A stretch of 64,000 nucleotides of DNA from Chloroflexota bacterium (GCA_016875735.1 VGOW01000008.1:21183-85182); one strand, 5' to 3'. Numbered from the stretch's first letter, positions 10,250 through 55,134 are shown. Program-made: numbers and translations. The notes: a model not told the origin generated them from the sequence alone.

Positions 10250-10278
10250 AATATAGCAGGCTAAACAGGGAGCGTCAA
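10250..10278 (-). promoter_or_regulatory. sigma70-type promoter of the thiamine operon
   Basis: Minus strand TTGACG, 17 nt, TATATT, about 15 nt upstream of the aptamer. The -35 overlaps the HEPN stop codon. Confidence 0.6.
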
Positions 10279-10673
10279 GCAGATTCTCCAGATTCGATCT
10301 TCTTGCTCACAAAAGCAAAGGCGTTCTTCGCCTGCTGGTAAAATGCTCGGCCTTCTTCTTTCGTTGGTTCAAGCGGAATGTCGGTGGGATAGCGTCCTTC
10401 AACTGCGAACGGGGTTAGGTCAGCGATTTCCGATTCGAGTTCGGCTAAATCGGGATCGGCGTTGATGCACAAATCGAGCAAGTAACCGAGATCATGTCGG
10501 AAGAGAAAGGGAACATCCTGCGCGGTGAGAAATGCTTTCAGGCTTTTTTCGACCGCCTGCTGACAGTGGAACGCCAGTATCGCGATCGGATACTCTTCGA
10601 AGGTTTGAAGCATTTCGGCGGCGGTGAGGTCGGCTTTAGCCCGGGTCAGCCACTCGTTGGCTTTGGCGCTCAT
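10275..10673 (-). CDS. HEPN domain protein (toxin of an MNT-HEPN pair)
   Basis: MSAKANEWLTRAKADL...AVEKSLKAFL...RHDLGYL pattern; 132 aa from ATG 10673. Confidence 0.8.
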   Translation of the reverse strand: MSAKANEWLTRAKADLTAAEMLQTFEEYPIAILAFHCQQAVEKSLKAFLTAQDVPFLFRHDLGYLLDLCINADPDLAELESEIADLTPFAVEGRYPTDIPLEPTKEEGRAFYQQAKNAFAFVSKKIESGESA

Positions 10674-10983
10674 AGAGGACTTTTCCGGTTTTGAGAATGT
10701 AACTGAGAAAGGATTGCGGATCTTTGACGCAAGCGCGCACCTCGGCAGGCGTGTAAGCGAGAATGTCAATCGGAAACGTGCGCGGGCGCAGGGCGCGGCT
10801 AATCATTTCTTGCCGCTTATCACGCCGCAGATTGGACTCCAACACGACGAGCAAATCAATGTCACTTTCCGGCCTTGCCTCGCCTCCCGCATACGAGCCG
10901 AACAAAACGATCTTTTCGGGCCGAATGCGCTCGACAAGGATTTGGCGAATCTGATGTAAACGCTGTTCCTGCTCAGTTGTCAT
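10636..10983 (-). CDS. minimal nucleotidyltransferase (MNT) domain protein
   Basis: LFGSYAGGEARPESDIDLLVV is the classic GSx(n)DxD nucleotidyltransferase motif. Directly upstream of, and overlapping, the HEPN ORF. Confidence 0.85.
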   Translation of the reverse strand: MTTEQEQRLHQIRQILVERIRPEKIVLFGSYAGGEARPESDIDLLVVLESNLRRDKRQEMISRALRPRTFPIDILAYTPAEVRACVKDPQSFLSYILKTGKVLYERQSQRVADPG

Positions 10984-25077: not shown

Positions 25078-26355
25078 ATGCAAAACTCAGCGATGCGCCG
25101 ATTGATTTTTTTGCCTGCTCTCGCGTGGATAGCCGTTGCCTGCGCGCGCGACTCGGCCCCCGCCACCCTCGTCGTCCCCATCCCCTCCTCCGCCGCGACT
25201 CCGACACTCCCTTTCATCGAACCGACTCTCATCCCCTCAACCCCTCATCCCCTCGCTTTGCCCTCCACCCAAACTCCAACTCCAACTCTCACTCTCACCC
25301 CAGTCCCCACCGGACAAATCGGCCCCTTCAGTTTCCCGCTCGATGTCAATCCGCTCACCGGAGAGACGGTGTCCGATCTGGCGGTGTTGAATCGGCGACC
25401 ACTGGCGATCAAAGTCTCCAACTATCCCTCGTGTGTGCGCCCACAGTCGGGCCTCTCGCTGGCCGATCTCGTCTTCGAGCATTACGCCGAAGGCCCCACC
25501 ACTCGCTTCACCGCCATCTTCTACAGCCACGACGCTCCGTTGGTTGGCTCGGTGCGCTCGGCGCGGCTCATCGATCTCGAAATCCCGGCGATGTATCAAT
25601 CGCTGTTCGCCTTCTCCGGCGCAAGCTCCGGCGTGCTGAACAAACTGAAGGAAGCCGACTTCAAAGATTGGATTCTCTCGCCGGAGTTCGAGCCGGGTCA
25701 CGATGCCTTCTTTCGCGTGCCCATCGAGTCGCTCGCGGCGGAATGTCAAGCATTGGAGCATACCCTGTTCACCAGCGCCGATCGTTTGTGGGCCGACGCC
25801 GATGCCAAAGGCGTGAACGTCCGCCCGGCCATTCTGGGCATGGCCTTCAACGGCGAGCCGCCGTCCGGCGGCCTGCCCGCCAAGATCGCTTCACTCGCTT
25901 ACGATGGCGAATACGTGCGCTGGACGTATAGCGAGACCGCCGGGCGTTACTACCGATACGCCAACGGACAACAGCACACCGACGCCCTCACCGAGTCGCA
26001 GATCATGGCCGCCAATGTTGTCGTGGTGTTTGCCCATCACGTGCTCACCGACATCCTCGAAAACACGTTTGGTTACGATCCGCGCACCGGCAGGGGCGGC
26101 AGTCACTCGATTGAGATTCAATTGTGGGGCACGGGGCCTGCGCTCGTGTTCCGCGACGGGCAAATGTATTCGGTGACGTGGTTGAGGCAGGATCGATTCG
26201 GGGTGCTGGGGTTGGTGGACTCCGCCACCGGGCAGCTGTTTCCGCTGAAACCGGGCAACACTTGGTTTCAACTTGCCCCGCTCGATTCGCCTCTCACCCA
26301 GCCCGAAGCGGAAGCGTGGGAAGTTGCGCCGACGCGGCTGATAGAGACGCCGTGA
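25078..26355 (+). CDS. DUF3048 (YerB-like) lipoprotein
   Basis: Signal peptide/lipobox (AVAC). Conserved block PLAIKVSNYPSCVRPQSGLSLADLVFEHYAEGPTTRFTAIF...VRSARLID. Confidence 0.85.
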   Translation: MQNSAMRRLIFLPALAWIAVACARDSAPATLVVPIPSSAATPTLPFIEPTLIPSTPHPLALPSTQTPTPTLTLTPVPTGQIGPFSFPLDVNPLTGETVSDLAVLNRRPLAIKVSNYPSCVRPQSGLSLADLVFEHYAEGPTTRFTAIFYSHDAPLVGSVRSARLIDLEIPAMYQSLFAFSGASSGVLNKLKEADFKDWILSPEFEPGHDAFFRVPIESLAAECQALEHTLFTSADRLWADADAKGVNVRPAILGMAFNGEPPSGGLPAKIASLAYDGEYVRWTYSETAGRYYRYANGQQHTDALTESQIMAANVVVVFAHHVLTDILENTFGYDPRTGRGGSHSIEIQLWGTGPALVFRDGQMYSVTWLRQDRFGVLGLVDSATGQLFPLKPGNTWFQLAPLDSPLTQPEAEAWEVAPTRLIETP

Positions 26356-26416
26356 ACGGCGGATTGTAAGTGATGCACTTCAATTGGAGCTTTGCATACG
26401 ATCCATCCTAAAGTAT

Positions 26417-26656
26417 CACCGCAGAGACACGGAGCGCGCAGAGTTTTTTGAAGATGCAAAATGCATCGAAGGACTTTCTCAAAGTCATCTTGGAGTGTCA
26501 TGCCGAGGCGCGAAGCGCCGAAGCATCTCAAGATTTGCCCTGAGATTCTTCGCGCCTATGGCGCTCAGAATGACGTTTCGGGCTTTTGTCAATGGACTTT
26601 GGGAACGTTGTGACATGCACTGGTTTTTTCTCCGTGCTCTCTGCGGCTCTGCGGTG
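26417..26656. repeat. nested composite repeat: REP-C arms enclosing a REP-A-like hairpin
   Basis: Outer arms caccgcagagacacggagcgcgcagag (26417-26443) and ctccgtgctctctgcggctctgcggtg (26630-26656). Inner hairpin gtcatgccgagg...ctcagaatgac (26497-26574). Confidence 0.65.
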
Positions 26657-26741
26657 AAATCGTTCTGCACCGTTCCTGCGAGTGTTGCGCTTGCGTTGCG
26701 CCGTAACCCGACTATACTTGACCGAGATTACTGGAGGAACT

Positions 26742-27101
26742 ATGACCGACCTTTCTCGCAAAGACGTGATCATGATCTTGGCCGCCACTCAAAACGCCCG
26801 GCTCGCTGGCGTCGATCTATCGGGCTTGGATTTGAGCGGCCTGAATTTCGCGGGCGCAGATTTGATCCGCGCCAACCTCTCCGGCGCAAACCTCACCTAT
26901 GCCCACATGCGCCACACCCAGCTCGAAGACGCCAACCTCGAAGGCGCAGTGCTGGTCAACGCGAATCTCAAAGAAGCGAATCTCAAAGGCTGCAAGATCA
27001 AAGGCGCGAACTTGAGCGGCGCGAACTTGACCGACGCCAACCTCTTCGGCGTTGAACTCGACCCGACTCAAAAAAGCCACGCCAAAGGCCTCCCATATTA
27101 G
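26742..27101 (+). CDS. pentapeptide-repeat protein
   Basis: GGAGG upstream of ATG 26742. Tandem A(D/N)LxG pentapeptides (LSGLDLSGLNFAGADLIRANLSGANL...). Confidence 0.85.
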   Translation: MTDLSRKDVIMILAATQNARLAGVDLSGLDLSGLNFAGADLIRANLSGANLTYAHMRHTQLEDANLEGAVLVNANLKEANLKGCKIKGANLSGANLTDANLFGVELDPTQKSHAKGLPY

Positions 27102-27221
27102 CGAGACCGATGCGGTTTACGAAACTGCGTCGGCCTGCCTCCCCACCACCATATTTCGCGCGCACACAAATTCGCGCCGTAGTCCCAACGAGATCATGCC
27201 TATGATAAAATTCCCCGCGCC

Positions 27222-28541
27222 ATGTCCCGAACAACTTTACCTCTTTCACTCATTCTCTTTTTGATTCTCCTCTCCGCTTGCAATTCAGCCACCAACCCAA
27301 CCACCCAACCACCCAACCACCCAACCACCCTTCCTCCGGCAGTCACCCTGAACGGCCCCACCCTCACGCCGCCGCCGCCCGCCGTCACTCTCATCTCCCC
27401 CACCGACTCCGTTCAACCGTCGGCCACGCCACTCGCGGCCATCGGCCCCGAAACGTATCCCGCCGGAGTCAACCCGCTCACCGGCCTCCCTGCCGACGAG
27501 GCGGCGCTCAATCATCGCCCGCTGGCGATCAAAATCTCGAACTTCCCGCGATACGTCCGCCCGCAAGCCGGACTCTCACTGGCCGACATCGTCTTCGAGC
27601 ATTATTCTGAAGGCGGCACCACTCGCTTCACCGCCGTCTTTTACGGCAACAACGCCGATCGCATCGGCCCCATCCGTTCGGCGCGGCTCATCGACACCGT
27701 GATTCCCGAAATGTTTCGCGCCGCGTTGGTGGCTTCGGGCAGTTCATCCGGCGTGCTTCAACGCATCGCTTACAAAGATTGGGCCGATGTGTTCGTGGCC
27801 GAAACCAGCGGCTACGGCTGCCCGACTCTGCTGTGCCCCGAAAGCGAAGATGCCAACTCGTTGTTCAGCTCCACCGCCGCCATCCGGCAAGCCCTCGCCG
27901 CAAAGGGATTCGACACTCGCCAATCGTTTCGAGGCGTGGCTTATTTGAATCAGCCGCCAGCGGGCGGCGCGGCGGTGAGCACACTGCGCGTTGAATACAG
28001 CGGTGAAGCGCACACCGAGTGGCACTACAACCCTGTCTCTGCAAGATACGAGCGCTGGTCGGAGACGAGCGCCACCGACATGCAGGCCCACTTCGACGCA
28101 GCCAACAAACAGCAAATCACGGCGGCTAACGTCATTGTCCTCTTCGTCAATCATGTCGTCGATTTCAGCATCCCCGAAGACTTCGACACCGACGGCTTCA
28201 CCGGCCATTTCAGCACCGAAGTGCAACTGTGGGCCACCGGCCCGGCGTGGCTTCTGCGCGATGGGCAGGCGTATCAGGCCACGTGGGTGCGATTGAACAA
28301 AGGCGATATGGTGGGACTCGTGGACGCGAAGAACAACGTCATCCCCCTCAAACCGGGAAACACGTGGTATCAAGTCGTCGGCCTCTACAGCGACTCCGTC
28401 ACCGACGGCGCGAACTGGATCGTGCGCCACAAATCTCCACGCGACAAAGGCGACATCCCCGGCGTGCCCTCGCCCACACCCACCCTCGAAGGCGCAACCC
28501 CCGAAGCCACCCCCGCCGAAACGCCGACAGCGGCGCCGTGA
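27222..28541 (+). CDS. DUF3048 (YerB-like) lipoprotein, paralog
   Basis: Lipobox LLSAC and the same conserved block as 25078-26355 (PLAIKISNFPRYVRPQAGLSLADIVFEHYSEGGTTRFTAVF...IRSARLID). Confidence 0.85.
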   Translation: MSRTTLPLSLILFLILLSACNSATNPTTQPPNHPTTLPPAVTLNGPTLTPPPPAVTLISPTDSVQPSATPLAAIGPETYPAGVNPLTGLPADEAALNHRPLAIKISNFPRYVRPQAGLSLADIVFEHYSEGGTTRFTAVFYGNNADRIGPIRSARLIDTVIPEMFRAALVASGSSSGVLQRIAYKDWADVFVAETSGYGCPTLLCPESEDANSLFSSTAAIRQALAAKGFDTRQSFRGVAYLNQPPAGGAAVSTLRVEYSGEAHTEWHYNPVSARYERWSETSATDMQAHFDAANKQQITAANVIVLFVNHVVDFSIPEDFDTDGFTGHFSTEVQLWATGPAWLLRDGQAYQATWVRLNKGDMVGLVDAKNNVIPLKPGNTWYQVVGLYSDSVTDGANWIVRHKSPRDKGDIPGVPSPTPTLEGATPEATPAETPTAAP

Positions 28542-46100: not shown

Positions 46101-46463
46101 AGTAGTCGAGTGGTCGAGTGGTCGAGTGGTCGGGGCGTGGGGAACGGTGGGGATGCTGGCTTCGGGGTTCCACGGTTTGTCGAGGATGGCGGGGCGGGCG
46201 GCGCGCGTGGCTTCGGGGTCGCGTTCGGGGACGCGTTTGGGCAGGGGCATGCCGCTGGCGTCAAGGTTAACTTTGGGCGAGACGGGGAGGGAGGGTGGGT
46301 GGGTGGTTCCCGCTCCGCTATCGCTTCGGGGCGCTGTCGCGGGGTGGTTGGGCGGTTGGGTGGTTTGAGGTTTGGAGTTTGGGGTTTGAGATTCCGCGTC
46401 GTCGTGCGGCGGGGTTTCGGGCTTTTGCGGTTCGCTGGGTTTGGTCGGCTCGTCCGGGGACAT
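43122..46463 (-). CDS. class A penicillin-binding protein (GT51 transglycosylase + transpeptidase) with low-complexity termini
   Basis: ATIATEDRDYYNHPGFD, RKIREIILA (GT51) and SSIK (transpeptidase). N-terminal Pro-rich region and C-terminal TDTP repeats. Confidence 0.92.
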   Translation of the reverse strand: MSPDEPTKPSEPQKPETPPHDDAESQTPNSKPQTTQPPNHPATAPRSDSGAGTTHPPSLPVSPKVNLDASGMPLPKRVPERDPEATRAARPAILDKPWNPEASIPTVPHAPTTRPLDHSTTPPSDHPTTRPPHWKRLALNLTLAAFALVAIAIVLAASAAIVEYYRIAQTLPDPDDLSTRAAQFESTYIYDSTGQLLYELNDPNKGRRTRIPIDQISPYLLAATIATEDRDYYNHPGFDAIAILKAVYRAYRYGGELAGASTITQQLTRALYLRLAECDDPDSESSCYELSVDRKIREIILAAEINRRYSKDQILELYLNEIYYGNLAYGIEAAAKTYFNKDAKDLTLAEAAFLAGLPQSPAVYDVFTDPETTFDRQKQVLLLMVEASGDCAQPGAGIPVRIGGEEQRLCVTQSEAAAAIIEIQNHTFIPPVIDAKYPHWVNYVRFILETQFGQELYRAGFRVRTTLNPQLQDLAEAEVKAQVESLAASHVTDGALIALDPNTGAILAMVGSDSYDDPVDGQINMAIRPRQPGSSIKTLTYVAAFEKGWTPSTLIWDVPTKFPDGANPPYEPVNYDGRFHGPVRVRDALANSYNIPAVKALQFVGVYDDPNTPGPDGLIKFAERLGIASLNRNDYGLALTLGGGEVTLLEMTNAYGVLANGGRKIIPVAITRIDSSNGAQVCEQPTDLAAAPTLPPCQAVPGDLGQPIVRAQHAFLISSILSDNHARALAFGPNSALALSFPAAVKTGTTNDYRDNWTIGYTPNLVVGVWVGNADFTEMAQGVSGVTGAGPIWHNVMQNAWEALGAQPESFAQPPGIITANICAATGAAENNYCKNIVDPRRPNEPPVVPEVFAADRPPAPPEKDIVVKLFIDKFSGLRASPECNNDTSNTEEKTFVTIADPFALTWLETNEQGRQWAERLGVTFPITPPPTEFCNPNAARPVAAIVSPSEFQTLDGLVPVYGVADIANGEFDHYIVDWGIGYDPQGWGGVSGEVRNPVKDAGLLAQWDTANVPDVEATLRLTVFDKQGNSKEARVRVIIQHPATETPIPSTDTPVPPTLTPTDTPSATPTLAATDTPTATDTLTAQPATATPTDTPTASDTPTATETTPPAP

Positions 46464-46624
46464 GGGGAGATTATAACGTGGAGAAGCCGAGCGGATAACC
46501 GGCCTTCATCGGCGATTGGAAATCGCGACACCAGAAGGCGAAGTCGGCCTTCGCCGACTTGGGTTACAACCTCAGCCCGCGAAGGCGGGCTTTGCTTCTT
46601 GTTGGTGCAGTTTCAACTGCTGTG

Positions 46625-47065
46625 TTATTGCCCGTCCACATCGTCTACATCGTTAATTTCGCATTGCTCCCACTCTCGCCACAGGGCTTGAGAAGCATGA
46701 TGACTCTTCTGATTGCGAATATAGTCGATCACTCGCGGCACATCGTTCTTTGACAGCGTGAATGCGCCGTAGGCTCCTTGCCATTTGAAAAACTTGCCGG
46801 GCGTGATCACGTGTGTGACGAGATGAGACGAAGCGCCTTTGACTCCCTTGAGCAAATCGGCAACGGTGAGGGTCGTCGGCAGGCGCACTAACAAGTGCAA
46901 ATGATCGTCCGCGCCGCCCAGCGCCAGTGGATAGGCTTTCAGCTCTCTGCATTTCTCGTTGATGGCCCCGTAAACCCGCAGTTCAATATCGGGCGTGATA
47001 AGCGGCATCCGATCCCAAGTTGCCCACACGGCGTGCAGATAAAGTTGAGTATAAGGCGCTCGCAT
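46625..47065 (-). mobile_element. IS200/IS605-family Y1 HUH transposase, RAYT-like
   Basis: 146 aa. LYLHAVWATWDR N-terminus, HUH motif DDHLHLLV, conserved WQGAYGAF tyrosine region. No companion tnpB ORF and no terminal inverted repeats seen. Confidence 0.85.
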
Positions 47066-47083
47066 GATTCTGTTATCGGGTTT

Positions 47084-48076
47084 CTAGCTGTTGCCCTTCG
47101 CCCTCCATCTCACCAGCCTCCCATCCTCAACCGCTTCCACCCGCCCATCATCAACCAAAATATCGAGATGCCCCATGATTTCGGAGTGGGCGAGGAAGAA
47201 GTCCATGCCGTGAGAGAGTTTGGGAAAGGTGGGCTGGACGATTTCCCACAGGGTGAGGGGGCGGTCGCAGAGGGCGGCGTAAATTTTATCGGCGCGGCGG
47301 CGGTGAAAGGCGATGCGTTTGCGGACGAGTTCGCGGGCGTTATGAATCAGATCGCCGTGCCCGGGGTAGGCAATGACCGGATCGAGATCGGCGATGCGCT
47401 GCATGTGATGGATGTATTCGACGAGTCGTTTGGGGCGCGGCCCACCGGCCCCGCCCAACGGCGGCGGCTCCATCACCGCGTTGGAGGTGATGTCCGGCAG
47501 AAGGTGATCGTTGGAAAGCAGTTCGCGAGTCGATTCGTTGAAGAGGCAGATCAACCCGCCCGAATGGCCGGGCGTGTGATACACGCGCCACTCCGCGCCG
47601 CCCGCCGTGATGATGTCGCCTTCGTCCACCGTGCGCGTGACTTTCATCGGCTCGTGCCAGCGAGTCATGCCGCGCCCCGACTTCTCCATCACGCCGATGA
47701 TCTCCGCCGGGACTCCACCTTGCGCCCAAATCTCTTCGTAGAACGGCAGGTGGCGGAGTCGCTCGGTTTCGTAATCGGCGAGGTAGGGAATGTTGTAGGG
47801 GTGCGAGAGAACGACTGCGCCGGAGCGTCCGACGATGACGTTCGTGAGGCCGACGTGATCGGCGTGATGGTGGGTGAGGACGAGTTGGCGGATGTCTTCG
47901 ATTCGTTTGCCGTGAAGAGCGAGTCCGCTTTCGAGCGCGGCGAGGGCTTCGGGCGTTTTGGGGCCGCAGTCAACCAGCGTGAGTGAAGCCTGCCCTGAGC
48001 TTGTCGAAGGGCCGTCGAGCAGATATACGTTCACCGGGCCGACGGGGAAGGGGGTGGGGAGGGAGAGGGTATGCAT
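47084..48076 (-). CDS. MBL-fold metallo-hydrolase
   Basis: THHHADHVG metal-binding motif. ATG 48076 is chosen because the upstream extension is encoded by a heptamer array. Confidence 0.85.
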   Translation of the reverse strand: MHTLSLPTPFPVGPVNVYLLDGPSTSSGQASLTLVDCGPKTPEALAALESGLALHGKRIEDIRQLVLTHHHADHVGLTNVIVGRSGAVVLSHPYNIPYLADYETERLRHLPFYEEIWAQGGVPAEIIGVMEKSGRGMTRWHEPMKVTRTVDEGDIITAGGAEWRVYHTPGHSGGLICLFNESTRELLSNDHLLPDITSNAVMEPPPLGGAGGPRPKRLVEYIHHMQRIADLDPVIAYPGHGDLIHNARELVRKRIAFHRRRADKIYAALCDRPLTLWEIVQPTFPKLSHGMDFFLAHSEIMGHLDILVDDGRVEAVEDGRLVRWRAKGNS

Positions 48077-48135
48077 GAAGGATGAAGGGGGAGTGGCAAG
48101 TAGCAAGTGGCAGGTGGCAAGTGTTGATGGAAGGG
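48076..48135. repeat. heptamer array (GTGGCAA words)
   Basis: gaaggatgaaggggga gtggcaa gtagcaa gtggcag gtggcaa gtg. Related arrays at 31208-31245 and 36046-36087. Confidence 0.65.
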
Positions 48136-48354
48136 TGTCGCGCGATTTGCGGGTTGGGGGCATTATACTCGGTGGGGAGGGGCGAGTTGCGGGGAGTATA
48201 ATCGTTGTGGGGAGGCGGGTTGTGAGCGCATGTGATTCATTCATCGACATATTGGGTGAAACCCTTTCGCCTAGCCTCCTCGTGGGGGATATCATGCGAA
48301 GTTTCATTTGCCGAATCCCGAGTTAGCCTCTGAAGTTTGCGAACACGGAAATTA

Positions 48355-49038
48355 ATGAAAGAACAGGTCAAGTCAAAGCAGCGCGTCGCCGACCACGGCG
48401 AAGTGTTCACCAGCGAACGCGAAGTGAACGCCATGCTCGACTTAGTGAAGCAGGAAACCGAGCGGATTGACTCGCGCTTCCTCGAACCCGCCTGCGGGAC
48501 GGGGAATTTCCTGACCGAAATCTTGCGCCGTAAACTGCAAGTGATGGAAAAGAAATATCGGCGCAGTCAACTGGACTTTGAGCGCAATCTCGTTTCTGCA
48601 ATTTCATCCATCTATGGCATTGACATTCTCGAAGACAACGTCATCGCCTGCTGCCAGCGGTTGTTCGAGATTGCGGATGAACGTTATACCGCCATCTTCA
48701 AGAAAAAAGCCAAAGACGATGTGCGGACAGTCTTGCGCTTCATCCTGAGTAAGAACATTATTTGGGGAGACGCGCTGGATCTGAAAACGGTGGGCGCTGA
48801 ACCGCACCAGATCATCTTTTCGGAATGGTCTTTCCCCCTGCACAACAGCCTCATCAAACGGCGCGACTTCGTCTTTGCGGAATTACTGCCCGACGAATCG
48901 AAGAAAACCCGCCAGCCCGATTTGTTTTCCAAGCCCGAACTGGTCTCCGATTTGGGCGAGAAAGTTTTCCTGCCCACTGAGACGCATAGCTACCCGCTGG
49001 TTCATTTCCTGAAGATCGGCGAAGAACTGGTGGAATAG
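48355..49038 (+). CDS. truncated N6-adenine methyltransferase-like protein lacking the catalytic NPPY motif
   Basis: Motif X GEVFTSEREVNAML, motif I LEPACGTGNFL, IYGIDIL, WGDALD. At the position expected for xxxGNPP(Y/F) it reads IIFSEWSF (48811-48834). Ends after 227 aa with no target-recognition region. Confidence 0.7.
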   Translation: MKEQVKSKQRVADHGEVFTSEREVNAMLDLVKQETERIDSRFLEPACGTGNFLTEILRRKLQVMEKKYRRSQLDFERNLVSAISSIYGIDILEDNVIACCQRLFEIADERYTAIFKKKAKDDVRTVLRFILSKNIIWGDALDLKTVGAEPHQIIFSEWSFPLHNSLIKRRDFVFAELLPDESKKTRQPDLFSKPELVSDLGEKVFLPTETHSYPLVHFLKIGEELVE

Positions 49039-49109
49039 AGTAAACGATTAAGCGCGTATCAAGTTGGCATGAAACAGCCTGATAGGAATTGCGGCCAGCG
49101 AAGGCATCT

Positions 49110-49839
49110 ATGAACAAGAGACCGAAAAAGGTTTCAAGCGTTGATACCCGCCATTACTTCGTAGATGAAGGCGGCGACGGCACGTTATTTGCCAGTAAGG
49201 GCAGGGTCATTATCGGAACGCCGGGTTGCTCACGGTTTTTCATGCTGGGGTAAAACGGCGCTGGCTTTTCATGCCAAAGACGATTTGCCCGAAGTGCGGC
49301 GCGAAGTGTTCAATCTCTTGCACGGCTTGGATGGCTTGCGTTTCTTCGCCGTTGTCACCGATAAATTGAGCGTGCTTGAATTTGTGCGCCAGCAAAACGA
49401 GCGCAAGGCCAACTACAGATACAACCCCAATGAATTGTATGATTATTTGGCCAGGCGGCTGTTCAAAGACAGGCTCCATCAGGATGGCAGTTATGAAATC
49501 ATGTTTTCCAAACGCGGAAAGGCAGACCGGACCGCCGCGCTAAAAAACGCATTGGAAACCGCCCGCCTGAGGTTTGCTGAACAATGGAACATAGCCAGCA
49601 ACGCGCCCATGAATGTGACGGCAGGCGCGCCGCAAACTCATGCGGGGTTGCAGGCAGTGGATTATTTCACCTGGGCATTACAACGTTTATATGAATCGGG
49701 CGAAGACCGCTACGTGGAATACTTGTGGTCTTCCTTTCATCTGACGCAAGATATTGACGATAAGCGCAAGGCTGGCTACGGCGCGTACTACACACAAAAA
49801 AAGCCGCTCAACGCGGCGGCTCTTTCATGGAGAAAATAA
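49110..49839 (+). pseudogene. DUF3800 family gene interrupted by a +1 frame change
   Basis: Frame A 49110-49253 (MNKRPKKVSSVDTRHYFVDEGGDGTLF...FMLG-stop) looks like a DUF3800 N-terminus. Frame B (ORF ending at 49839) continues with TALAFHAKDD...GLQAVDYFTWAL. The junction is at ctg-ggg-taa-a (49245-49254). Confidence 0.6.
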
Positions 49840-49966
49840 AAAACCAGTGGATATAGGACTGCGCAGACCGTAGCCTTGCAATCACACGGCATGGAGCCGA
49901 TTTTTGTCCGCTGGTAGTTTCATTAATAATCGGATTTGCCCGTTTTTCAAGCAGGAACTTCGATAT

Positions 49967-50050
49967 GTCATTGCGAGGGCGAAGCCCGAAGCAATCTCCC
50001 CGCCAGCAAGGGGATTGTTTCGCCGCCAAAGAGCGGCGGCTCGCAATGAC
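49967..50050. repeat. REP-A palindromic element, copy 2
   Basis: gtcattgcgag (49967-49977) and ctcgcaatgac (50040-50050), with inner gaagcaatctcccc/ggggattgtttc arms. Confidence 0.75.
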
Positions 50051-50060
50051 ATCAGGATGA

Positions 50061-51629
50061 ATGCGTATGCTCGTCAACTACAACCCCGATGTCCTCTCCT
50101 GCCTCGCCAACCTGTCCAGCGACGAAGTCTTCACGCCGCCGACCATCTCCAACCAAATGCTGGACTTGCTCCCGCCAGAGATTTGGTGCGACCCCAATGC
50201 CACATTTCTCGATCCTGCTACAAAAACAGGCATCTTCCTGCGGGAGATTGCCAAACGCCTGATGGTTGGACTGGAAAAAGCCATCCCCGACAGGCAAAAG
50301 CGCATCAATCACATTTTCACGAAGCAATTGTATGGCATTGCCATCACCGAAATCACCGCCCTGCTCTCGCGCAGAAGCGTGTATTGCTCCAAAAAAGCGA
50401 ACGGCAAATACTCGGTGTGCGAAGGATTCGACACGCCCGAAGGCAACATTGTATTCAAATGGATGGCGCATGAATGGGAAGGTGAGCGTTGTAAATACTG
50501 TGGGGCAAGTGAAAATGTCGCAGAATATAGCCGAAGCGACACGATGGAAAGCCACGCCTACCAGTTCATTCACACTATCAACCCGCAGGAGATTTTCAAC
50601 ATGAAATTCGATGTCATTGTCGGCAATCCGCCGTACCAGTTGAGTGATGGGGGCGGCACAGGTACAAGCGCAAGACCAATTTATCAACTTTTTGTACAAC
50701 AAGCCAAAAAGTTGAACCCGCGCTATTTGACAATGATTGTTCCATCTAGGTGGTTTTCAGGAGGCAAAGGATTAGATGATTTTCGAGATGAAATGTTGCA
50801 TGACACTAGCATTAGGAAGGTTGTTGATTTCCCAAATTCCGCTGATTGTTTTCCCGGTGTAGATTTATCAGGCGGAGTCTGCTTTTTTCTCTGGGATAGA
50901 GACAATAAAGGAAACTGTAAAGTTAGCACGAGTGAAAGCGGAAAAATTACCTCTGAAACAGAAAGACCACTGCTAGAAAAAGACGCAGGTACGTTTATTA
51001 GATACAACGAAGCCATATCTATATTGAGAAAGGTTCAAGAGAAAAACGAAAAAGGTTTCGTAGATATTGTTAGTTCCAATGACCCGTTCGGTTTTGACGT
51101 GCGAGCCGAAAACAGTTGGAAAAGAGTAAAGCCAGAATTTGCTCTGAAACGCTTTGAAAACAGTGTAGCTTTTTATTACAACGGTTGGAAAAGATTTGGG
51201 GTAGGGTTTGTAGAAAAAACCGCTGTTCAAAAAAACGCTGATTGGATTCGTAAATACAAGGTGTTTATAGCAAAAGCCTACGGAGAAAGAGGAAGTTTCC
51301 CGTATCGTGTTCTGGCATTTCCCTATCTTGGCGAGAAAAACAGTTGTTGCACAGAAACCTATCTTGTTGTGGGGCCTTTCGATTCAAAAGCCTTTGCCGA
51401 GAACGCGATTCAATACATCCATACTCGCTTCCTTAGGTTCTTGGTGTTGCTCAAAAAGAACACACAAAACGCTCTTCGCGGTGTTTATTCATTCGTCCCC
51501 ATACAAGACTTCACCGAACCCTGGACAGACGAAAAACTCTACAAGAAATACAAACTGACCAAAGCGGAAATCGAGTTCATCGAAAAAATGGTTCGTCCAA
51601 TGGACAATGGAGACGAAAGCGATGAGTAA
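50061..51629 (+). CDS. Eco57I-like N6-adenine DNA methyltransferase
   Basis: [17 protein letters not shown] (motif X), [12 protein letters not shown] (motif I variant), [11 protein letters not shown] (motif IV), then [14 protein letters not shown]. Confidence 0.88.
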
Positions 51630-54210
51630 CGGCTTCTTCCCGCCGCGCCCCGAGTCGCGTCCCGTCATCTACGCCTACGCAGACACCCACCCGCAATACA
51701 AAGGCTTGCTCAAAGTGGGCTACACGGCGCGCACGGCGGCGGAACGGGTGGCAGAGCAATATCCCACCGCCCGCCCTGGGGCATTGCCCTACCGCATCGT
51801 CTTCGAGCAGTCCGCCATGCGCAAAGACGGCACGACCTTCACCGACCGCGAGATTCACCGTCAACTGCGCGGCATGGGCGTCCAAAATCCCGATGGCGAG
51901 TGGTTCGCCTGCGCGCTCGAAGAACTGCAAGCCGCCTATCTCGCCGTCAAGAGCGGCGAAACGGGCGACGCCGACGCCGAACGCACGCTCGACTTTTCCG
52001 TGCGCCCCGAACAAGCCGACGCGGTGAAAAAAACATCCGCCTATTTCCTCGATTTCAGAAAAGACAGAGCCAACAAGGGCAAGACCCCGCACTTTTTATG
52101 GAACGCCAAAATGCGTTTCGGCAAAACCTTCGCCACCTATCAACTCGCCAAACGGATGAACTGGAAAAAGATCCTCGTCCTCACCTTCAAGCCCGCCGTG
52201 CAAAGCGCGTGGGAATCCGACCTGAAAACGCATCGGGACTTTAAGGGTTGGCAGTTCATCTCGCCCGACGGTTTAGCCTATGCCGACGCCGACAGGCGCA
52301 AACCCATCATCTGCTTCGGCTCGTTTCAGGATTATCTCGGCAGGAACCGAAGCACGGGCGGCATCAAGACCAAGAACGAGTGGGTTCACGCCACGCATTG
52401 GGATTGCGTCATCCTCGACGAATATCACTACGGCGCGTGGCGCGAGAAAGCCAAAGACCTATTCGAAGCCGAAGACAAGGAAGAAATCAAGTTTGCCAAA
52501 GGGGAAGGCGCAGAGTTCCTCACCGAAGTCACCGAAGAGATCGAAGACATCCTGCCCATCACCACCGATCATTATCTCTATCTCTCTGGCACGCCCTTCC
52601 GCGCGATTGCCTCGGGTGAATTCATCGAAGAACAAATCTTCAACTGGACGTATTCTGACGAGCAACGCGCCAAAGCCCATTGGGATGGCGGCAACGCTTC
52701 GACTCCGCTCAGCGCGAGTAATCCCTACGCCATGCTCCCGCGCATGGTTCTGCTCACCTACCAATTGCCCGACTCCATCCGCGAGATTGCCATGCAGGGC
52801 GAATTCAACGAGTTCGATCTCAACGTCTTTTTCTCCGCCGAAGGCGCGGGCGTGTTGGCGCGTTTCACATACGAAGACGAAGTGCAAAAATGGCTCGACT
52901 TGATTCGCGGCGCGTTCCTCGAAACGACGGTGGACAACCTGAAACTCGGCGCGAAGAAACCGCCCATGCCCTTCTCGGACGTGCGCCTGCTCAACGTCCT
53001 CTCGCACACCTTTTGGTTTTTGCCCAGCGTGGCGGCGTGTCACGCCATGGCGAATCTGCTGGCGCAAAAGCAAAACAAGTTCTATCACGATTACAAAGTG
53101 ATTGTCGCCGCCGGCGCATCGGCAGGCATTGGCGTGGACGCGCTGCCGCCCGTTTACGAAGCGATGGGCGACCCGCTCGAATCCAAGACCATCACCCTCT
53201 CGTGCGGCAAACTGACCACAGGCGTCACCGTCAAACCCTGGACGGGCATCTTCATGCTCCGCAACTCATCCAGCCCCGAAACCTACTTCCAGGCCGCCTT
53301 CCGCGTCCAATCCCCGTGGACGATCAACAACCCCGACGGCTTGCATCCCAACGCCGAAGAAGTCATCAAACACGAGTGCTACGTCTTCGACTTTGCCCCC
53401 GACCGCGCCCTGCGCCAGATCGCCGAATACGCCTCGCGCCTGAACGTCAACGAAGCCGTCAGCCCCGAAGCCAAAGTGGCGGAGTTCATCAATTTCCTGC
53501 CCGTGCTGGCGTATGACGGCAGTTCCATGAAGCAAGTGGACGCGGCGGGCATCCTCGATATCGCCATGAGCGGCACGACCGCGACCCTGCTCGCCCGCCG
53601 ATGGGAAAGCGCCCTGCTGGTCAATGTGGACAACGAAACGCTTCAAAGACTCATGGCGAATCAACTGGCGATGGACGCGTTGATGAGCATCGAAGGTTTC
53701 CGCAATTTGAATCAGGACATCGAAACCATCATCAACAAATCCGAAGCGGTCAAGAAAGCCAAGCGCGACGCCAACGACAAGGAACTCAGCGAAAAGCAAA
53801 AGCGCGAATTGACCGAAGCCGAAAAGGAATACAAGAGCAAGCGCAAACTGATTCAGGAGAAGTTGATCAAATTCGCCACCCGCGTCCCCATCTTCATGTA
53901 CCTTACCGACTACCGCGAGCGCACCCTGCGTGATGTGATTACCTTGCTGGAGCCGGGTCTCTTCAAACGCGTCACAGGCTTGGAAGTAAAAGACTTTGAA
54001 TTGCTCGTCAGCCTCAATGTCTTCAACAGCGCCCTGATGAACGACGCCGTCTTCAAGTTCAAACGCTACGAAGACGCCAGCCTCGTGTATACGGGCGTCA
54101 ACAAACACGAAGGCGAAGATATTGGTTTGTATGATACGGTGCTGAACCGAAAGGATTATCAAGCAACGTTTGTGAATGAGTCGGTTGAGACTTACGAAAC
54201 CCGGCGATAA
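51607..54210 (+). CDS. T5orf172 (GIY-YIG-like) domain fused to SF2 helicase/translocase, putative restriction subunit
   Basis: N-terminus [29 protein letters not shown]...DGEWF (T5orf172 pattern). Helicase motifs I (RFGKTF), II (ILDEYHY) and III (LSGTPF). Overlaps the methyltransferase stop by 8 nt (ATG 51622) or 23 nt (ATG 51607). Confidence 0.88.
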
Positions 54211-54283
54211 GGGGAAAGGGGGCCAACAGCCGATGAAACCCAACATTGGTCCCACCGGACACCTTCGCCGAACAATGAAAGAA

Positions 54284-54313
54284 GGCCGGGCAACTGCCCG
54301 GCCTTCTGCTTTC
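54284..54313 (+). terminator. intrinsic terminator of the methyltransferase-helicase pair
   Basis: GGCCGGGC-AACT-GCCCGGCC followed by TTCTGCTTTC. Confidence 0.7.
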
Positions 54314-54320
54314 ATAAACT

Positions 54321-54461
54321 GCTCACGCATCGAGCGCCCTGAGCGAGCGCCGTGGTTTTCGGCGCGAAGTCGAAGGGTGCGGGTCGAGCGCGAGGGCCGC
54401 ATCCTTCGACTTTGCGGCGGCACTGCGCCGCCGCGCCGCTCAGGATGCTTGTCTCGTGAGC
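54321..54461. repeat. nested palindromic element at the right edge of the AT-richer island
   Basis: Outer arms gctcacg/cgtgagc and ccctgagcg/cgctcagg. Inner 20-bp stem cgcgaagtcgaagggtgcgg/ccgcatccttcgactttgcg, plus gcggcggc-act-gcgccgccgc. Confidence 0.65.
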
Positions 54462-54474
54462 GGTTTCCTGCTTT

Positions 54475-54948: not shown

Positions 54949-55010
54949 GGGGACTCCTGTGAAGGCGAATTTTCACCGCGAAGGCGCGAAGCAGGCAAAG
55001 ACATTTTTGA

Positions 55011-55081
55011 CCCCTGAGCGCACAGAGAACACGGAGAGATGATTTTCATGAGTCTCTGTGAACTCCGTGCGCTCAGGGGTG
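55011..55081. repeat. REP-C hairpin (CCCCTGAGCGCAC...GAG arms)
   Basis: cccctgagcgcacagagaacacggagag pairs with ctctgtgaactccgtgcgctcaggggtg. Confidence 0.7.
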
Positions 55082-55134
55082 AAACCCATTTCACGGCATT
55101 CTATCATGAGACTCTTTGGGGGCGCTGTATTTCG

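Follow-up and report, generated by a model that had tools for sequence, protein, structure and literature searches.

A widespread three-gene cassette in a Chloroflexota genome as a candidate ATP-dependent restriction-modification system with a methylase-like, non-catalytic subunit

Introduction

In Type III restriction-modification (R-M) systems, the Res subunit contains a C-terminal PD-(D/E)xK nuclease and the Mod subunit is a beta-class methylase. Gene clusters of another composition, in which a methylase is encoded with a DEAD helicase and a GIY-YIG protein, have been predicted to be Type I-like with single-strand modification (Morgan et al., 2009; PMC2731913). The DnmA-YeeB-YeeC cluster is horizontally acquired, coincides with a local minimum in guanine-plus-cytosine (GC) content and is found in defense neighborhoods (PMC9973331), and its homologs in Vibrio altered phage sensitivity (PMC9973331; PMC7261158). 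Here we describe a set of three genes, which we call A, B and C, in a 64,000-nucleotide stretch of DNA from a Chloroflexota bacterium (GCA_016875735.1 VGOW01000008.1:21183-85182). The whole stretch is referred to as the window, and positions are counted from its first letter.

Gene A (48355-49038, plus strand) encodes a 227-amino acid S-adenosylmethionine (SAM)-binding half-methylase, gene B (50061-51629, plus strand) an Eco57I-family N6-adenine methylase, and gene C (51607-54210, plus strand) a protein composed of a T5orf172 domain, a superfamily 2 (SF2) DExH ATPase and, at the C-terminus, a helical region. The genes are located in an island richer in adenine and thymine (48308-54470), which a previous inspection of the DNA, here called the sequence-only reading, had singled out for a methylase-helicase module fitting no textbook Type I, II or III system. 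Our analysis supports that assessment, and also confirms four same-strand open reading frames (ORFs) in the island, namely A, a frameshifted DUF3800 gene, B and C. The module had however been thought to be a pair of genes accompanied by two leftover genes, whereas the results presented here show a module of three genes, A-B-C, with the DUF3800 gene alone being decayed. The window copy is an intact and ordinary member of an abundant, uncharacterized cassette family.

Results

Conservation of the cassette across genomes

Homologs of protein C number more than 8000 in the protein database, and relatives of it are encoded in 478 species-representative genomes. Our survey of gene neighborhoods covers the best 80 loci, searched with the window's four proteins, and these were found in more than 15 bacterial phyla and one archaeal bin (Woesearchaeota). 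Each of these loci encodes a C protein with 73-88% identity to that of the window, and in 67 of the 80 loci the genes A, B and C are located on one strand in that order, with identities of 55-84% for A and 50-70% for B. The arrangement is compact in approximately 43 of these 67 loci, with gaps between genes of -16 to +80 nucleotides. For example, in Candidatus Brocadia sapporoensis the A, B and C proteins are 226-228, 515 and 857 amino acids long and gene A overlaps gene B. Of the 13 loci that do not have the full set of three, ten are truncated by the end of a contig. Two loci (L020 and L027; locus and protein labels are our own) are visibly degraded, with an insertion sequence (IS) element adjoining C in the first and broken genes in the second, and in L065 the copy of A was too divergent to pass the score filter.

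We define the cassette as genes for A (~225 amino acids), B (~520 amino acids) and C (~850 amino acids) on the same strand in that order. The window has all of these features and, in addition, 1 kb of inserted DNA that separates A from B. Some lineages encode C and B as a single fused polypeptide, and A is still present alongside. Members of the family are named “restriction endonuclease” or “restriction endonuclease subunit M” by NCBI, and neither the A-B-C family nor its half-methylase subunit is described in the literature that we searched.

Gene A is a conserved half-methylase

The product of gene A corresponds to the N-terminal half of an MmeI_Mtase protein (Pfam, E = 1.2e-6), and motifs X (GEVFT), I (EPACGTGNF), II (YGID) and III (GDAL) are all kept. 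There is no NPPY motif; its position is occupied by an invariant QIIFSEWSFP, which is followed by a conserved tail. The matching database protein (P0121) is named “SAM-dependent DNA methyltransferase [Chloroflexi].” The sequence-only reading had viewed A as a decayed partner with a destroyed motif, which is not borne out by its conservation directly 5' of B in the 67 loci at the identities given above (55-84%). With a threshold of E <= 1e-30, a profile of the A family recovered 658 clusters (50% identity level); among the 150 representatives with the best scores, nearly all stand alone as proteins of about 120-290 amino acids. The N-terminal 120 residues of A and B are ~32% identical, and the two genes are therefore considered to be paralogs.

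In the few longer members of the A family (483-549 amino acids), an A-like N-terminal part is fused in frame to a B-like catalytic half and recognition region. The junctions differ among the A::B chimeras P0275, P0299, P0303 and P0333, and in the locus L051 (5671-7167) residues 1-68 of A are joined to residue 75 onward of B, with C also being present. The chimeras suggest repeated deletion fusions, and that the SAM-binding half of A can replace that of B. Furthermore, on the Lactococcus plasmid pCV56A (L095, 2824-7876) and on a plasmid from Enterococcus durans (L097), an A-like gene encoding 230-248 amino acids overlaps or abuts a gene for a fused helicase-Eco57I methylase of 1452-1456 amino acids; the small protein of pCV56A is 36% identical to A (E = 2e-29). 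The presence of A with B and C in both their split and fused forms argues that it is a subunit and not debris. Judged by its sequence conservation, A is a core subunit of the cassette that is devoid of the catalytic motif and not decayed. As a separate observation, the N-terminus of the fused enzyme of pCV56A has a weak match to DUF4145 and no match to T5orf172.

Gene B is an adenine methylase with an exchangeable recognition region

Gene B matches Pfam Eco57I (E = 9e-37) and the PADLOC profiles MTase_II (2.9e-61) and REase_MTase_IIG (2.2e-51), and a nuclease domain is absent from its domain matches. The protein contains the NPPY motif, a four-cysteine insert, a hypervariable region and a conserved C-terminal tail. 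Residues N189-P-P-Y192, C109, C144 and C147 are invariant and C120 is nearly so, and B is predicted to be a complete gamma-class N6-adenine methylase. The cysteine cluster (residues 109-147; 50385-50501) is located between methylase motifs II and IV and is probably a zinc-binding insert.

Residues 281-440 (50901-51380, plus strand) form the variable region, which is the presumed target-recognition domain (TRD) and also the GC minimum of the island. The majority-residue frequency is 0.32-0.56 in this region, compared with 0.6-0.94 (mostly ~0.8) in residues 1-280. The mean pairwise identity of the region is 0.345, with 17 clusters among 53 sequences, and its identity is uncorrelated with that of C (r = 0.18). 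In a slightly shifted segment, residues 266-430, the GC content is 0.398 and the GC content at third codon positions (GC3) is 0.339.

Contigs from the source population end at 50417-50528 and at 51522-51618. In one of the loci (L003), C is 99.9% identical to the window gene and the B tail only ~55-70% identical at the DNA level, with a jump to 100% near the start codon of C. Because of the contig breaks, the allele in L003 and the very low GC3, we consider that the recognition module of B was recently replaced by recombination. The module is polymorphic between strains of the source population, and the pattern of alleles indicates that the hypervariable region is exchanged by recombination with a breakpoint at the B/C junction. 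The contigs of this population (L001, L002, L003, L091 and L100), which come from several lake metagenomes, were all observed to break around the central part of gene B.

Gene C combines a candidate nuclease with an ATPase

Gene C overlaps the end of B, and its start is called in the database at 51622, 5 codons after the start of the 867-amino acid ORF. It matches Pfam T5orf172 (E = 4.9e-11) and ResIII, and the T5orf172 domain covers residues ~20-115 (matches to T5orf172 and MUG113). The residues Y22, Y24, G38-Y39-T40, R47 and E98 of this domain are invariant, as are the ATPase motifs GKT (172-174), DEYH (271-274), SGT (327-329) and QxxFR (Q562..R566). At the level of motifs, both the T5orf172/GIY-YIG-type domain of C and the SF2 DExH ATPase to which it is fused are intact. 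The identical database protein (P0001) is named “restriction endonuclease,” and several homologs of C are named “GIY-YIG nuclease family protein.”

The sequence-only reading had seen neither a PD-(D/E)xK nuclease motif nor a C-terminal nuclease like that of Type III Res. This stands in so far as no PD-(D/E)xK family match was obtained in C and its helical C-terminus matched no nuclease family. However, the N-terminal T5orf172 domain was overlooked as a nuclease candidate; from its Pfam clan assignment we take T5orf172 to be a member of the GIY-YIG superfamily, and this GIY-YIG-type domain is the candidate nuclease of C.

No significant match was obtained in sequence and profile searches of the PDB with A, B, C, a fused relative, the family profiles and a broadened helicase-core profile. 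AlphaFold2 models built from alignments of close homologs were poor, with predicted local distance difference test (pLDDT) scores of 48 for A and 43 for C, where the T5orf172 domain alone was confident. A Foldseek search of the PDB with the poor C model gave nothing at E <= 0.001 and matched generic SF2 helicases, which we treat as uninformative.

Accessory genes and the DUF3800 pseudogene

Extra same-strand genes are present between the core genes in about a third of the loci (L009, L010, L013, L028, L035, L039, L042, L046 and L076). The gap between A and B was found to hold a DarT-DarG fusion (L009), SoFic (L013) and an IS200-like Y1 transposase (L010), and the gap between B and C holds DUF1016/YhcG nucleases (PADLOC PDC-S02), RhuM (PDC-S05) and a recurrent 285-amino acid Bro-N protein (PDC-S13). 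DUF1016/YhcG, RhuM, Fic, Bro-N and DarTG are frequent passengers of Type I restriction operons, and the A-B-C operon likewise appears to be a hotspot for defense-candidate cargo. On the plasmid L096, the cassette is located near DUF262 and toxin-antitoxin genes. On a Mycolicibacterium plasmid (L099) it is found beside tyrosine recombinases, a TIR-domain/HIT-domain gene pair and a helicase-DUF1156 cluster, a neighborhood that represents a plasmid-borne defense island.

In the window, the distance of 1 kb between A and B is filled by the DUF3800 pseudogene (49110-49839, plus strand) and a host-type palindrome. The pseudogene was identified by reading the sequence and by matches to Pfam DUF3800 and PADLOC DUF3800_VII; DUF3800 is an effector-type domain of type VII retrons. 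Its N-terminal piece (49110-49252) is terminated by a stop codon and the remainder continues in the +1 frame to 49839, within the ORF 49165-49839. The frameshift described in the sequence-only reading is thus confirmed, since the gene is split over two frames and joining the pieces restores a full-length Pfam match (positions 2-148 of 149). An independent assembly (L100) is 100% identical across 46323-50450, including the frameshift, which is therefore unlikely to be an assembly error of one record. The DUF3800 gene is the sole decayed gene of the island and is an insertion between A and B; no homolog was found in the 80 related loci when these were searched with the window protein.

Composition and surroundings of the island

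The GC content is 52.8% in 48308-54470 and 61.1% in the remainder of the window, which verifies the compositional difference that had been seen by eye. None of the 456 segments of the same size outside the island is as low (mean 61.3%, standard deviation 1.1, minimum 58.8). The GC content is uneven along the island: ~51% in A and the DUF3800 gene, 39-44% in the 3' half of B and 54-60% in C. The GC3 values of A (0.69) and C (0.75) are host-like, with 0.73-0.77 in the flanking genes, and the value for B is 0.50, falling to 0.34 in residues 266-430. The island is real and of foreign origin, and its horizontal acquisition, as proposed in the sequence-only reading, is supported; it is nevertheless a mosaic, not foreign throughout, with a helicase gene whose composition is close to that of the host.

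Proteins A, B and C are 100% identical to the Chloroflexi metagenome-bin proteins P0121, P0391 and P0001, respectively, and the closest relatives belong to the Anaerolineales. The window is thus assigned to a Chloroflexi/Anaerolineales population, and an origin in Pseudomonas, which the REP and RAYT terms of the sequence-only reading might suggest, is rejected. The island is flanked by housekeeping genes, with a class A penicillin-binding protein and a metallo-beta-lactamase (MBL)-fold hydrolase on the left side and a MaoC dehydratase and a glycosyltransferase on the right side. We searched relatives for an empty site in which the MBL and MaoC genes are adjacent, but the contigs with either flanking gene all came from the same population and all contained the island. 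A scan for promoters and terminators gave counts that were not above those in shuffled sequence.

The MBL-fold hydrolase gene (47084-48076, minus strand) adjoins the island on the left. Its start had been placed at 48307, as the left border of the island, and is instead called at 48076. The database annotations of L100 and L101 give this protein a weak precomputed Pfam match to the anti-Pycsar Apyc1 family, which may be just a generic MBL resemblance. The MBL gene is in turn adjoined by a gene for an IS200-like Y1 transposase of 146 amino acids (46625-47065, minus strand), which was identified with NCBIfam models and scored 50.7 bits with the IS200/IS605 model (cut-off 55) and 17.4 with REP_Tyr_transpos (cut-off 80). 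With these scores, the RAYT-like label given to it in the sequence-only reading is tentative. A relationship between this protein and the Y1 transposase between A and B in L010 was considered and rejected, as the two are unrelated.

The two palindromes that had been noted at ~49967-50050 and ~54321-54461 are corroborated by their fold energies and z scores. The first (49965-50052) is a nested, host-type palindrome with a three-way junction just 5' of the start codon of B (-51.9 kcal/mol, z = -7.4). It has a sibling at 1194-1279 with different loops, and the two share both the outer stem (GTCATTGCGAG...CTCGCAATGAC) and the inner stem (CGAAGCAATCT...AGATTGCTTCG); together they look like a family of repetitive extragenic palindrome (REP)-like repeats of this Chloroflexi genome. 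The right edge of the island holds the second (54319-54463), which is also nested and is large (-104.1 kcal/mol, z = -8.1). Within the window, a 14-nucleotide piece of it is found in exact form only once, and its three matches with two mismatches are at chance level. The MaoC gene is flanked by this palindrome and another one at 55006-55084 (-50 kcal/mol, z = -9.7), neither of which matched the family of the 49965 palindrome in the searches run. A GC-rich hairpin (54275-54306) with a 12-bp stem, including 9 GC pairs, is located between the convergent C and MaoC genes and may serve as a terminator for both.

Two other patches of low GC content were observed in the window. One, at ~54-56% GC near 10.0-11.2 kb, holds a gene for a HEPN-domain protein (10275-10769, minus strand), which is possibly a small toxin-antitoxin or defense gene. 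The other, at 25078-28541, has a slightly low GC content and contains genes for two paralogous DUF3048 proteins and an unassigned 223-amino acid ORF.

Discussion

We propose, with a probability of roughly 0.65, that A-B-C is an ATP-dependent R-M system in which B methylates, B and C together translocate and cut, and A is a non-catalytic partner, and which carries a DUF3800 gene and a host repeat as insertions. The observations behind this proposal are the domain content, the integrity of the motifs, the conservation of the operon, the turnover of the recognition region and the defense context, from which we infer the enzymology and the role of A. The variable region of B would recognize a short and probably asymmetric site, at which methylation of adenine would mark the DNA of the host. 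At an unmethylated site, the B-C complex would hydrolyze ATP and translocate along double-stranded DNA, and the GIY-YIG-type domain would cut away from the site, as in Type ISP and Type I enzymes. Protein A would be a structural or regulatory subunit that binds SAM without catalysis, and it could serve as an adaptor or could sense SAM or the methylation state. The operon would in addition act as a docking site for accessory defense genes, and it is for this reason that we think the DUF3800 gene arrived by insertion, to decay later.

Several points weigh against this proposal. Not all T5orf172 domains are proven nucleases, and the role of A is purely inferential. Support at the level of folds is lacking because of the poor models (pLDDT 48 and 43). 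The gap of 1 kb with a strong hairpin between A and B means that co-expression may be disturbed in the window. We found no experimental test of the exact A-B-C family in the literature, and in Bacillus subtilis the DnmA-YeeB-YeeC cluster showed no restriction and no protection against phages (PMC9973331; PMC7261158).

A bolder version of the proposal can be put forward only tentatively. It holds that A-B-C is a distinct, unnamed class of ATP-dependent R-M systems, in which the GIY-YIG-helicase motor is gated by an obligatory dead SAM-binding subunit, A, which might for example sense SAM or whether a flipped adenine is methylated. This would place the cassette among the most mobile and conserved defense modules known, with ~75% protein identity from the Chloroflexi to the Cyanobacteria, Acidobacteria, Verrucomicrobia and an archaeal bin, and the operon would be an insertion platform for accessory defense genes.

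We also considered whether the cassette could be a methylase module of the epigenetic or orphan type, the conclusion reached for dnmA-yeeB-yeeC in B. subtilis, in which the helicase-nuclease no longer restricts, B regulates genes, and A and C are relics or take part in some other DNA transaction. The behavior of the B. subtilis cluster described above would fit such a module, as would the interruption of the window operon between A and B. However, A, B and C are all intact in the window, and the high identity of C across phyla (73-88%), with every ATPase and nuclease-domain motif invariant, indicates that C is under strong selection and is not a relic. Furthermore, the turnover of the recognition region and the surrounding defense genes are typical of active restriction systems, and loci with C alone are visibly degraded. 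We therefore regard this explanation as unlikely.

Less likely still is a mechanism of methylation-guided exclusion without cutting, resembling the bacteriophage exclusion (BREX) and the defense island system associated with restriction-modification (DISARM) systems, in which C would be a replication-blocking translocase or a recruiter and T5orf172 a DNA-binding module. The methylase B is distantly PglX-like, with matches to NCBIfam BREX_1_MTaseX (6.7e-4, far under the cut-off) and PADLOC PglX (0.0096), and the T5orf172 domains of some phage-satellite proteins have been described as DNA-binding or regulatory. Against this, PADLOC identified no further BREX or DISARM component (PglZ, BrxC, DrmA/B or PLD), and C keeps, without variation, the residues expected for GIY-YIG catalysis. 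Finally, the idea that the island is a graveyard of systems, in which a methylase-helicase pair happens to lie beside a dead methylase and a dead DUF3800 gene that are decaying and unrelated to it, draws on the frameshift in the latter and the missing NPPY of A but is highly improbable, given that A is full-length, kept beside B in 67 loci, retained beside fused C-B enzymes, invariant in its replacement motif and tail, and part of a family of 658 clusters whose best representatives are nearly all stand-alone.

The interest of the proposed R-M system is in the family, with its extreme conservation, dead-methylase subunit and swappable recognition module, and not in the window copy as such. If it is an active restriction system, then a large family, with 478 species-representative genomes and more than 8000 protein clusters, is without a studied member or a sequence-related solved structure. 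If restriction is active, it would also combine a GIY-YIG-type nuclease and a translocating motor with a dead paralog of the methylase as a conserved subunit, an arrangement that recalls other pairs of catalytic and pseudo-methylases and that has not been described for restriction enzymes. The swappable recognition module of B could yield new adenine-methylation specificities, and the hosting of accessory genes by the operon could be of use in finding new defense genes. The near-identical motor found across phyla is a good model of how defense genes spread horizontally. For annotation, the implication is that the short “methyltransferase” A is neither a pseudogene nor an independent methylase.

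Comparison with known systems

A check against typed systems with PADLOC gave a partial answer. The Type IIG profile PDLC03626 (~1359 amino acids) does match both proteins, with residues 126-782 of C aligned to profile positions 152-801 (5.1e-30) and residues 16-512 of B to positions 864-1357 (2e-51), and an automated tool would for this reason label the genes as RM Type IIG. However, the profile describes a single fused polypeptide with a helicase region, which makes it ISP-like instead of an ATP-independent IIG enzyme of the classical kind, and thus another architecture: the window has split genes, a T5orf172 N-terminus that is outside the profile, and gene A. Nor does the cassette resemble the single ATP-independent nuclease-methylase of the Type IIG/IIL (MmeI/Eco57I-like) enzymes, because B has no nuclease and its partner C is an ATPase. 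The other PADLOC systems (Hma, MADS, BREX and DISARM) gave only weak, sub-threshold matches to the methylase domain.

The cassette is similar to Type I systems in that the operon hosts inserted accessory genes and the recognition module is swapped by recombination. As the sequence-only reading had stated, there is no HsdS-like specificity gene among the ORFs of the island; the recognition function is instead presumed to reside in the variable region within B, and an HsdR-type PD-(D/E)xK domain is also absent. A methylase with its own recognition domain and an SF2 ATPase-nuclease, with a Pfam ResIII match in C, are features shared with Type III systems, and some homologs of A are labeled “type III restriction endonuclease subunit M” by NCBI. 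The differences are that the nuclease-type domain of the cassette is N-terminal and GIY-YIG-type, that its methylase is gamma-class and Eco57I-like, and that there are two methylase-like genes, A and B, instead of a single Mod partner.

The closest analog in domain content is the DnmA/YeeA-YeeB-YeeC cluster, which we compared by its description. In both, a nuclease-less methylase with a TRD, an SF2 helicase and a T5orf172/GIY-YIG domain are encoded together. In the cassette, however, the GIY-YIG-type domain is fused to the helicase, YeeB and YeeC being separate proteins, and the order of the genes differs, and the methylase is a 520-amino acid Eco57I-family protein, not a large MmeI-like one, accompanied by the separate half-methylase A.

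Likewise, the functional parts of the Type ISP enzymes (LlaGI and LlaBIII), which are nuclease, SF2 ATPase, gamma-class adenine methylase and recognition domain, all have a counterpart in the cassette. The ATPase is intact (ResIII; GKT, DEYH, SGT and QxxFR) and the methylase is followed by the variable region 281-440. The cassette differs in that it is split into methylase and nuclease-helicase genes in reversed order, only the distant relatives on Firmicute plasmids being fused, and in that its nuclease is T5orf172/GIY-YIG-type, whereas that of Type ISP is an N-terminal Mrr-like PD-(D/E)xK domain. There was no significant match in the PDB, a search that covers the Type ISP structures if these are in the copy searched, and the conserved dead half-methylase A is an additional component. 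The fused Firmicute relatives are nonetheless ordered nuclease-helicase-methylase-TRD from the N- to the C-terminus, as in Type ISP, and by analogy the mechanism of the cassette is likely that of the Type ISP enzymes: recognition of a site, ATP-driven translocation and cleavage at a distance.

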